Below, piece by piece: positions 13,583 through 56,118 of a DNA stretch of 64,000 nucleotides; the stretch's first letter is position 1; the number at the start of each line of letters is the position of its first letter. Under the pieces are notes generated by a model. That model was not told where the DNA came from. It saw nothing but the letters and a program-made list of their open reading frames with translations, and ran no database searches. Source of the stretch: Escherichia coli (lineage in GTDB: Bacteria > Pseudomonadota > Gammaproteobacteria > Enterobacterales > Enterobacteriaceae). The stretch is from NCBI RefSeq assembly GCF_036507355.1, contig NZ_AP027877.1; one strand, 5' to 3'. Position numbers and translations under genes: made by a program.

Positions 13583-13686
13583 ACGTTCCTCCTTTATATG
13601 AACTCACCGGAGCAGGCTCCGGTGAGGTGTTGTGAACTTAAGTCTGGACGAAATGCCCGAAAACGAAAGTTTGAGGCGTAAAAAGC

Positions 13687-18961: not shown

Positions 18962-19387
18962 ATGGCAATGCATCTTAACGAAAACCTCGACGATAACGGC
19001 GAAATGCATGATATCAACGTGACGCCGTTTATCGACGTGATGTTGGTTCTGCTGATTATCTTTATGGTGGCGGCACCGTTAGCGACGGTAGATGTGAAGG
19101 TTAACTTGCCTGCTTCTACCAGCACGCCGCAGCCGCGCCCGGAAAAACCGGTTTATCTGTCGGTGAAGGCAGACAACTCGATGTTTATCGGTAACGATCC
19201 GGTCACCGATGAAACAATGATTACGGCGTTGAATGCGTTAACCGAAGGTAAGAAAGACACCACCATCTTCTTCCGAGCGGACAAAACCGTCGATTACGAG
19301 ACGTTGATGAAGGTAATGGATACGCTGCATCAGGCGGGTTATCTGAAGATAGGCCTGGTCGGCGAAGAAACCGCTAAAGCGAAGTAA
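18962..19387 (+). CDS. exbD: TonB-system protein ExbD
   Basis: 141-aa ORF MAMHLNENLDDNGEMHDINVTPFIDVMLVLLIIF...; recognised as ExbD. Confidence 0.95.
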   Translation: MAMHLNENLDDNGEMHDINVTPFIDVMLVLLIIFMVAAPLATVDVKVNLPASTSTPQPRPEKPVYLSVKADNSMFIGNDPVTDETMITALNALTEGKKDTTIFFRADKTVDYETLMKVMDTLHQAGYLKIGLVGEETAKAK

Positions 19388-19394
19388 AGTAGAA

Positions 19395-19610
19395 TTGCCT
19401 GATGCGCTACGCTCATCAGGCCTACAAAATCTATTGCAACATGTTGAATCTTCGTGCGTTTGTAGGCCGGATAAGGCGTTCACGCCGCATCCGGCATTAG
19501 GTGCTCAATGCCTGATGCGCTACGCTTATCAGGCCTACAAAATCTATTGCAACATGTTGAATCTTCATGCGTTTGTAGGCGGATAAGGCGTTTTCGCCAC
19601 ATCAGGTAAG
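19395..19610. repeat. Tandem REP (BIME-type) elements, two near-identical ~80-bp units
   Basis: GCCTGATGCGCTACGCT(C/T)ATCAGGCCTACAAAATCTATTGCAACATGTTGAATCTTC(G/A)TGCGTTTGTAGGC(C)GGATAAGGCG occurs twice (about 19397-19478 and 19510-19590); REP consensus palindromes. Confidence 0.8.
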
Positions 19611-19627
19611 AGTGAATTCACAATGAT

Positions 19628-19660
19628 GCCCGGTTGCTTTTCACAACCGGGCATTTTTTT
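19628..19660 (+). terminator. Rho-independent terminator (exbBD side) abutting the yghA stop
   Basis: Hairpin GCCCGGTTG-CTTTTCA-CAACCGGGC followed by TTTTTTT. Confidence 0.6.
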
Positions 19661-20543
19661 AACCTAAATGCTCGCCGCCGCACACGCCGTGCACTTCTGC
19701 GGTGACGTAGCTCGACTCCTGACTTGCCAGATAAACATATACAGGGGCCAGTTCCGCCGGTTGCCCCGCACGCTTCATCGGCGTTTTCTGACCAAACTGC
19801 GGGATCTTATCCTGCGTTTGTCCGCCGGAAATTTGCAGTGCTGTCCAGATCGGGCCTGGCGCGACAATATTCACCCGAATACCTTTCTCTGCGACCTGTT
19901 TTGCCAGGCCACGGCTGTAGTTCAGAATTGCCGCCTTCGTAGCTGCATAGTCCAGTAAATGCGGGCTTGGCTGGTATGCCTGGATTGACGAAGTGGTGAT
20001 GATACTTGCACCTTTCGGTAGCAGGGGTATCGCTTCCTGGGTTAGCCAGAACAGTGCGAAAACGTTAATGGCAAAGGTCTTTTGAAACTGTTCGCTGGTG
20101 AGGTCTGCAATATCAGGAATGGCAACCTGTTTCCCGGCGACCAGCGCCATAATATCCAGCCCACCTAAGGCCTTATGCGCTTCGTGAACCAGCGAACGGG
20201 CAAATTTCTCATCGCTTAAATCGCCTGGCAGCAGAACGGCTTTGCGTCCGCATTCTTCAATGATCTTTTTCACATCCTGAGCGTCTTCTTCTTCTACGGG
20301 AAGATAACTGATCGCCACGTCAGCCCCTTCACGCGCGTAAGCGATGGCGGCAGCGCGACCGATTCCGGAATCGCCCCCTGTCACCAGGGCTTTACGATCT
20401 TTCAGGCGACCGCTACCAACATAGGTTTTCTCGCCGCAATCCGGTACCGGTGTCATCTTCGCCTGGATGCCTGGCGTCGGTTGTTTCTGTTTGGGATATT
20501 CACCAGTGTAATACTGCGTGGTCGGGTCTTTTAAATGAGACAT
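19659..20543 (-). CDS. yghA: NADP-dependent short-chain dehydrogenase/reductase YghA
   Basis: 294-aa ORF with [10 protein letters not shown] Rossmann motif; recognised as YghA. Confidence 0.9.
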
Positions 20544-30494: not shown

Positions 30495-30612
30495 ATTAGC
30501 TTTCGTAGGTCTGATAAGACGCGGCAGCGTCGCATCAGGCATTGTGCTCGATTGCCGGATGCGGCGTGAACGCCTTATCCGGCCTGGATGGCTTGCTGCG
30601 ACGAACGCTAAC
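30495..30612. repeat. REP element pair between hybG and yghU
   Basis: GTAGGTCTGATAAGACGCGGCAGCGTCGCATCAGGC ... GCCGGATGCGGCGTGAACGCCTTATCCGGCCTGGA are REP-consensus palindromes. Confidence 0.7.
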
Positions 30613-55763: not shown

Positions 55764-56118
55764 TAGCGTCAAAAAAAGCCCCGGCAAGTTTTATTGTCGG
55801 GGCTATTATAGTAACTGCGGTAGTACATTTATCCCGGAAATAACCGGAGCGATTATCAGGGTTTAACAATATTAAATACCCGTAGCGCATCACTAGCGGG
55901 ATTAAAACAATAATATGGACATCTTAACGATACTCTGCGCCTGCGTGTGCGGAACAGAAACCCTTACCCGATATACTTGTTATGCCAAAGGTAGCAATTG
56001 CGTTAGCAGCGTACTGTTGCTGTAAAGTATAACGCCTATATTTTACAGTTCAGTCCTCTTTTGCTTATTACAACCTTAATCATATCAAGCATATAAAGAT
56101 AATAAGAGACTGAACAAT

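Follow-up and report, generated by a model that had tools for sequence, protein, structure and literature searches.

Introduction

A REP is an imperfect palindrome of 30-40 nt that carries a conserved GTAG at its 5' foot, read as CTAC when the element is inverted (PMC3333891). Among the composite elements built from REPs, BIME-1 designates one z1 and one y REP placed around a conserved long linker, often with an IHF site and occurring in single copy (Ton-Hoang et al., PMC3333891), and multi-copy mixtures are termed 'atypical BIMEs' (PMC3333891). The closest described counterpart of the locus studied here is REP222 of E. coli K-12, a cluster of five REPs assigned to exbB, exbD and yghA (Murashko et al. 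2023, PMC10100675). In that work yghA was chosen as a model mRNA with multiple REPs, and a REP probe detected the full-length yghA mRNA as well as a decay intermediate of ~300 nt, both of which were stabilised by ATP depletion, by inactivation of RNase E and by loss of the degradosome scaffold (PMC10100675). The transcripts of exbB, exbD and yghA responded to ATP depletion together with other REP-bearing mRNAs (PMC10100675).

Here we analyse the corresponding region in a 64,000-nt stretch of E. coli DNA, which in its entirety is referred to as the window. A preliminary description had reported tandem REP/BIME repeats, followed by a terminator, between exbD and yghA and had regarded them as an ordinary E. 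coli feature. The repeats were recovered at the same positions by Tandem Repeats Finder and by a repeat search, and the appraisal as ordinary also stands, the K-12 sequence being matched save for one intergenic base and the K-12 cluster having been catalogued as REP222 (PMC10100675). The element is very probably this REP/BIME cluster, situated in the shared 3' region of exbBD and yghA, together with the exbBD intrinsic terminator; as such it is already known and ordinary for E. coli. What we add is its unit structure, a linker that is specific to the locus and a polymorphism with nucleotide-exact boundaries, along with the suggestion that a bidirectional terminator lost one of its directions through the insertion.

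Results

The intergenic region between exbD and yghA occupies 271 nt (19388-19658) and is flanked by converging reading frames, exbD at 18962-19387 on the + strand and yghA at 19659-20543 on the - strand, each identified from the ORF listing and from the annotation of matching E. coli genomes. The TAA stop codon of exbD lies at 19385-19387, 9 nt upstream of the first REP stem, and that of yghA, likewise TAA when read on the - strand, at 19659-19661. In an allele alignment the spacer had the same length as that of K-12 MG1655 (3,150,547-3,150,817 in K-12) and differed from it at one base, and the exbD gene of this non-K-12 strain departs from that of K-12 by a few synonymous differences. RefSeq record NC_000913.3 holds no repeat_region feature over the exbD/yghA stretch. 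Near its 3' end (19350-19367) the exbD gene of this strain, unlike that of K-12, reads ATAGGCCTGGTCGGC, which resembles the REP head GTAGGCCTGAT and shows 78% complementarity to the first REP of the array (REP a, below); the likeness is probably the product of chance and one synonymous change.

Tandem Repeats Finder returned a single array at 19396-19603 with a period of 113 bp, 1.8 copies and 93% matches (score 372), while the repeat search paired two 72-nt stretches in register (19396-19467 with 19509-19580; 97% identity). When the two units were aligned globally, 77 of the first 80 columns (96%) were identical, as were 92 of the first 99, and beyond this point the second unit decays. Hence the near-identical units of about 80 bp in the preliminary description correspond to a real conserved core, the 77/80 segment, but not to the true period, which is 113 bp. 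A search for the REP motif TATCMGGCCTAC with at most one mismatch yielded five matches against 0.21 expected in the 64-kb window, three of them between exbD and yghA; the REP palindromes at this locus are not due to chance.

As reference BIME-1 we used the best copy of the canonical L linker, which is located downstream of katE; this linker is a dispersed motif, present in 5,425 of 5,426 genomes at a median of at least 31 places per genome. Measured against this copy, the first palindrome of the array, REP a (19396-19425, + strand), is a z1 REP in the iREP orientation that ends in CTAC, agrees at 28/30 positions and folds into a hairpin of -15.3 kcal/mol. It is followed by a long linker, L-a, comprising the 36 nt between CTAC and GTAG (19426-19461) and carrying the IHF-like core ATTCAACATGTTG on the - strand (19437-19449), and then by REP b (19462-19496, + strand), a y REP in the REP orientation with GTAG at its 5' end, identical to the katE y REP at 35/35 positions and with a hairpin of -20.9 kcal/mol. 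A short linker of 12 nt, TTAGGTGCTCAA (19497-19508), resembling the 'l' of the Y-l-Z2 element naRNA4, joins this unit to the next. There, REP c (19509-19538, + strand) is again a z1 REP in the iREP orientation (29/30; hairpin -13.2 kcal/mol) and precedes the long linker L-c (19539-19574), with its IHF-like core at 19550-19562 on the - strand and 22/36 identities to the katE linker. The last member, REP d (19575-19608, + strand), is a decayed y REP that matches the katE y REP at 29/35 positions and forms a hairpin of -8.9 kcal/mol; a 1-nt deletion in the stem and five substitutions set it apart from the reference, GTAG being kept and the stem decayed, and a 16-nt spacer separates it from the terminator.

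REPs a-c thus combine intact stems of -13 to -21 kcal/mol with the GTAG or CTAC foot, and the identification as REP is borne out by the comparison with the katE BIME-1, at 35/35 for y and 28-29/30 for z1. They are extragenic, lying between two stop codons, and highly repeated, as a 461-nt query spanning the locus found a median of at least 33 places per genome. Folding of the whole spacer predicts that each strand can form a single long hairpin (about -111 kcal/mol; z-score about -6.6 to -6.9).

The preliminary description had also warned that this repeat structure could be taken for a minimal CRISPR array or for an sRNA, and the caution about an sRNA proved well placed. The resemblance to a minimal array, with two 30-nt repeats and one spacer, comes from the presence of two palindromic 30-nt repeats of equal length, 113 bp apart; these 'repeats', however, are z1 REPs, which are dispersed at tens of places per genome, there was no match to Rfam CRISPR families, and the neighbours are exbBD and yghA rather than cas genes. 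Since the sequence between the repeats has been duplicated along with them, there is no unique spacer, and we give an array at this position practically no credence. The possibility of a small protein gene arises because the ORF listing mechanically contains a 63-aa ORF at 19395-19586 on the + strand and ORFs of 40-81 aa on the - strand. Yet these frames cross REP palindromes and duplicated DNA within a block that is absent from 29% of genomes, the ORFs running through the repeats gave no Pfam matches, and none of them is annotated in any record inspected, so that the chance of a coding function appears negligible.

The sRNA reading concerns the y-linker-z1 REP pair at 19465-19535 on the + strand, which matches the Rfam family naRNA4 (RF02564) over the full length of the model (positions 1-77) with 68.1 bits against a gathering score of 59.5, and which could accordingly be annotated as a discrete gene for a naRNA4-type RNA, that is, a two-hairpin, HU-binding, nucleoid-associated sRNA. 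Some plausibility comes from the nature of naRNA4, a Y-l-Z2 REP pair that arises by processing of a REP cluster (PMC4550694). However, the threshold is passed because the model describes a REP pair; RF02564 behaves as a generic REP-pair model, with 50.2 bits on the opposite strand here and a second match in the window at another REP pair (30508-30584). The second hairpin of our segment is z1, which lacks 7 nt relative to the Z2 of naRNA4 and is aligned with seven model positions deleted, and in the Rfam alignment the short linker reads AAcGGUGCCGACU in the model and AUUaGGUGCUCAAU here. No promoter-like site was found near the match, the segment lies inside the 3' UTRs of two mRNAs, and the functions ascribed to naRNA4, HU binding and DNA condensation, have been shown for REP325 only (PMC4550694). 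An independent sRNA gene is consequently very improbable, and we rejected it along with the CRISPR and small-protein readings. The REP pair at 30508-30584, on the - strand, belongs to another BIME and is the stronger naRNA4 match (84.8 bits); two sRNA families also exceeded their Rfam gathering scores in the window, namely C0719 at 55819-56040 (- strand, 291 bits) and ES173 at 13621-13684 (- strand, 99 bits).

With the REP/BIME cluster as the preferred reading, its class could be examined through the katE copy. Read on the - strand, each unit aligns with the katE BIME-1 from end to end, with y REP, long linker and inverted z1 in the same order and at the same spacing, and each thus pairs one y REP with one z1 REP of opposite orientation. 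The long linkers measure 36 nt against 35 nt in the katE BIME-1 and are identical to it at 21-22/36 positions, sharing the core ATTCAAnATnTTGCA. Because this BIME-1 layout is duplicated rather than single-copy, amounting to two tandem units or 1.8 copies by Tandem Repeats Finder, the element is, judged by sequence organisation, a pair of BIME-1-type units and an 'atypical BIME' in the Bachellier/Ton-Hoang scheme. Its long-linker variant is confined to the exbD/yghA locus, with a median of two places per genome in the 3,790 genomes that have it, against at least 31 for the canonical L. The linker core agrees with the IHF consensus WATCAANNNNTTR at 12/13 positions in both units, a quality of match that occurs about once per kb in the window, and by analogy with other BIME-1 elements IHF may bind the two linkers.

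The strong hairpin and T-run noted in the preliminary description are real. The predicted exbBD intrinsic terminator (19625-19660, + strand) consists of a 12-pair stem with seven G-C pairs, a 7-nt loop and a T7 tract; the hairpin spans 19625-19655, folds at -20.5 kcal/mol and runs into the T7 at 19654-19660, the last bases of which are the complement of the yghA stop codon, with which the T-run overlaps. This terminator is invariant in four aligned alleles and identical in Escherichia sp. MOD1-EC7003. In the allele of this window, a G+C-rich stem-loop followed by a U-run is present on the + strand and not on the - strand, and no terminator-like site was found on the - strand within 1.4 kb downstream of yghA. 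By comparison, in alleles that lack the repeats the same hairpin, within a spacer of 38 nt, scores as a terminator on both strands, with a - strand tail, CATTTTTATT, that reaches into the exbD stop codon. Four clear REPs are present here against five in the K-12 count; the naRNA4 model weakly aligned the terminator hairpin as a second REP (20.8 bits), and this hairpin may be the fifth REP of K-12. The ~300 nt intermediate of K-12 has a size that fits the 271-nt spacer. In E. coli LP-26-E1-261 (NZ_CM144251.1) an IS200C of ~0.7 kb sits inside the T-run, directly after the hairpin (855-1570 of locus L004; window 19654-19660), where it splits the U-tract of the exbBD terminator and moves the yghA stop codon away from the hairpin.

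Comparison across 5,426 complete E. coli genomes showed that the repeats form a discrete block of 233 bp (19389-19621), beginning with GTAG and lying between A19388 and A19622, that is either present or absent. The 461-nt query was covered to at least 80%, the cut-off used, in 3,586 of the 5,426 genomes and the unit was present in 3,771, placing carriers at ~66-69%. In 1,575 genomes (29%) the junction is empty, and three A's after the exbD stop codon lead directly into the hairpin. A third form, a recombinant with one copy of the unit, was matched exactly in ~137 genomes (~2.5%), mostly at one place per genome; its left part has the variant of unit 1 and its right part those of unit 2, and given this mosaic it appears to have arisen through a deletion in which the two units recombined. 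A 61-nt query across the unit junction was not locus-specific, matching 3,897 genomes at up to seven places per genome, and was excluded from the counts of the two-copy allele.

Alignment of the filled, one-copy and empty alleles revealed no target-site duplication and no microhomology deletion at the ends of the 233-bp block. A loose similarity of the flanks (GTAAAGTAGAATT and GTAAGAGTGAATT) was considered and set aside, a decayed copy of the short linker being the more likely explanation. The empty allele is also that of Escherichia sp. MOD1-EC7003, a separate lineage whose exbD has diverged by 3-4%, and a hairpin scan of genome contigs gave one locus among the matches listed; with the ancestral state read from this one outgroup, the empty junction points to the 38-nt spacer as the original state and to the block as a later insertion.

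The last exbD codon (19383-19384) is AAG in alleles with the BIME and AAA in empty alleles, including that of the non-coli Escherichia (comparison with L002 and L006), so that a synonymous exbD site adjoining the insertion co-varies with the block. Strain GPEC349-628 (NZ_CM160080.1; L005/L007) contains IS621, of the IS110 family, in a z1 REP of the exbD/yghA BIME; its junction, at about 590-600 of L005, corresponds to REP c at ~19533-19538 of the window, and across its right junction the sequence is ...ACAGTAT|CTACAAAATC, the insertion point being the CT of ...ATCAGGCCTAC. Beyond this IS621 lies yghU, not exbD, which points to a rearrangement in that strain.

Discussion

The BIME may have spread and been amplified through the REP-associated Y1 transposase (TnpA-REP) or through recombination, and the lack of a target duplication is consistent with either; its copy number appears to have changed since, the two units having recombined. 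We propose, as a possibility that we regard with some doubt, that the BIME landed inside a compact bidirectional terminator, exactly where the hairpin meets the minus-strand U-tract, turning it into a one-way terminator and giving exbBD and yghA long, fully complementary, REP-laden 3' UTRs, with the effect that decay of the two mRNAs is coupled and ExbD translation is slightly damped.

In the mechanism that accompanies our main reading, exbBD transcripts would cross four REP hairpins and end at the hairpin and U7 on the + strand. The insertion would part the - strand U-tract from its hairpin, so that yghA transcripts would run on into the REPs, where the stems would halt exonucleases working 3'-to-5', so that a stable 3' fragment with the REPs remains; a yghA mRNA that includes the REPs and gives rise to a stable fragment is what the published K-12 experiments show (PMC10100675). 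With exbBD crossing the REPs from one side and yghA reading into them from the other, the two 3' UTRs would be complementary over ~270 nt. As to translation, REPs no more than 15 nt from a stop codon are described as stalling terminating ribosomes and lowering translation (Liang et al. 2015, as cited in PMC12306157), and REP a, at 9 nt past the exbD stop codon, falls within this distance and may mildly reduce ExbD translation by ribosome stalling. We infer these effects on exbD translation and yghA termination from the sequence together with the K-12 experiments.

A more modest interpretation is that the BIME is a selfish or neutral passenger without consequence for the expression of exbBD or yghA. 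This would account for a block that is missing from 29% of E. coli genomes and reduced to one unit in a few percent, whose fourth REP is decaying, and in or beside which IS elements have inserted without apparent constraint. Against it, the K-12 transcripts of exbB, exbD and yghA respond to ATP depletion and yghA leaves a stable intermediate that contains the REPs (PMC10100675), and the insertion takes the - strand U-tract away from the hairpin. We therefore consider a passenger without effect unlikely, if by no means far-fetched.

As a discovery the element matters little, being annotated in K-12 and already in use as a model REP-bearing 3' UTR. It has more value for annotation, where it explains a repeat that tools mislabel, as the Rfam naRNA4 match and the 63-aa ORF illustrate, and it neatly illustrates a recent REP-cluster insertion that is still polymorphic and has changed the geometry of a shared terminator. 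The block is itself a target for insertion of IS621. If the proposed one-way terminator is correct, mRNA decay of the TonB system would be coupled to that of an aldehyde reductase in carriers of the block, and the split between 29% empty and ~67% filled alleles would constitute a natural experiment on the effects of REP insertion on host genes.

Placed beside the systems described so far, the element is closest to REP222 of K-12, with which it shares the locus, the 271-nt length and the sequence except for one intergenic base, nothing substantive being different. From BIME-1 (RIB/RIP elements) it takes its parts, their order, orientation and spacing as in the katE copy, with y at 35/35 and z1 at 28-29/30, whereas it departs from that class in having two tandem units, diverged linker flanks, a linker specific to the locus and a BIME-2-like short linker that joins the units. 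What it has in common with naRNA4/REP325 (RF02564) is a pair of hairpins, formed by a y REP and a z-type REP on either side of a short linker; there, however, the pair contains Z2 and the cluster six units, while here it contains z1 and the cluster two units, and the RNA is one predicted by a model match. Finally, the empty allele resembles the bidirectional intrinsic terminators found between convergent genes, with one hairpin and U-tracts on both strands in a 38-nt spacer, and differs from the allele of this window, in which insertion of the BIME leaves a predicted terminator on the + strand only.
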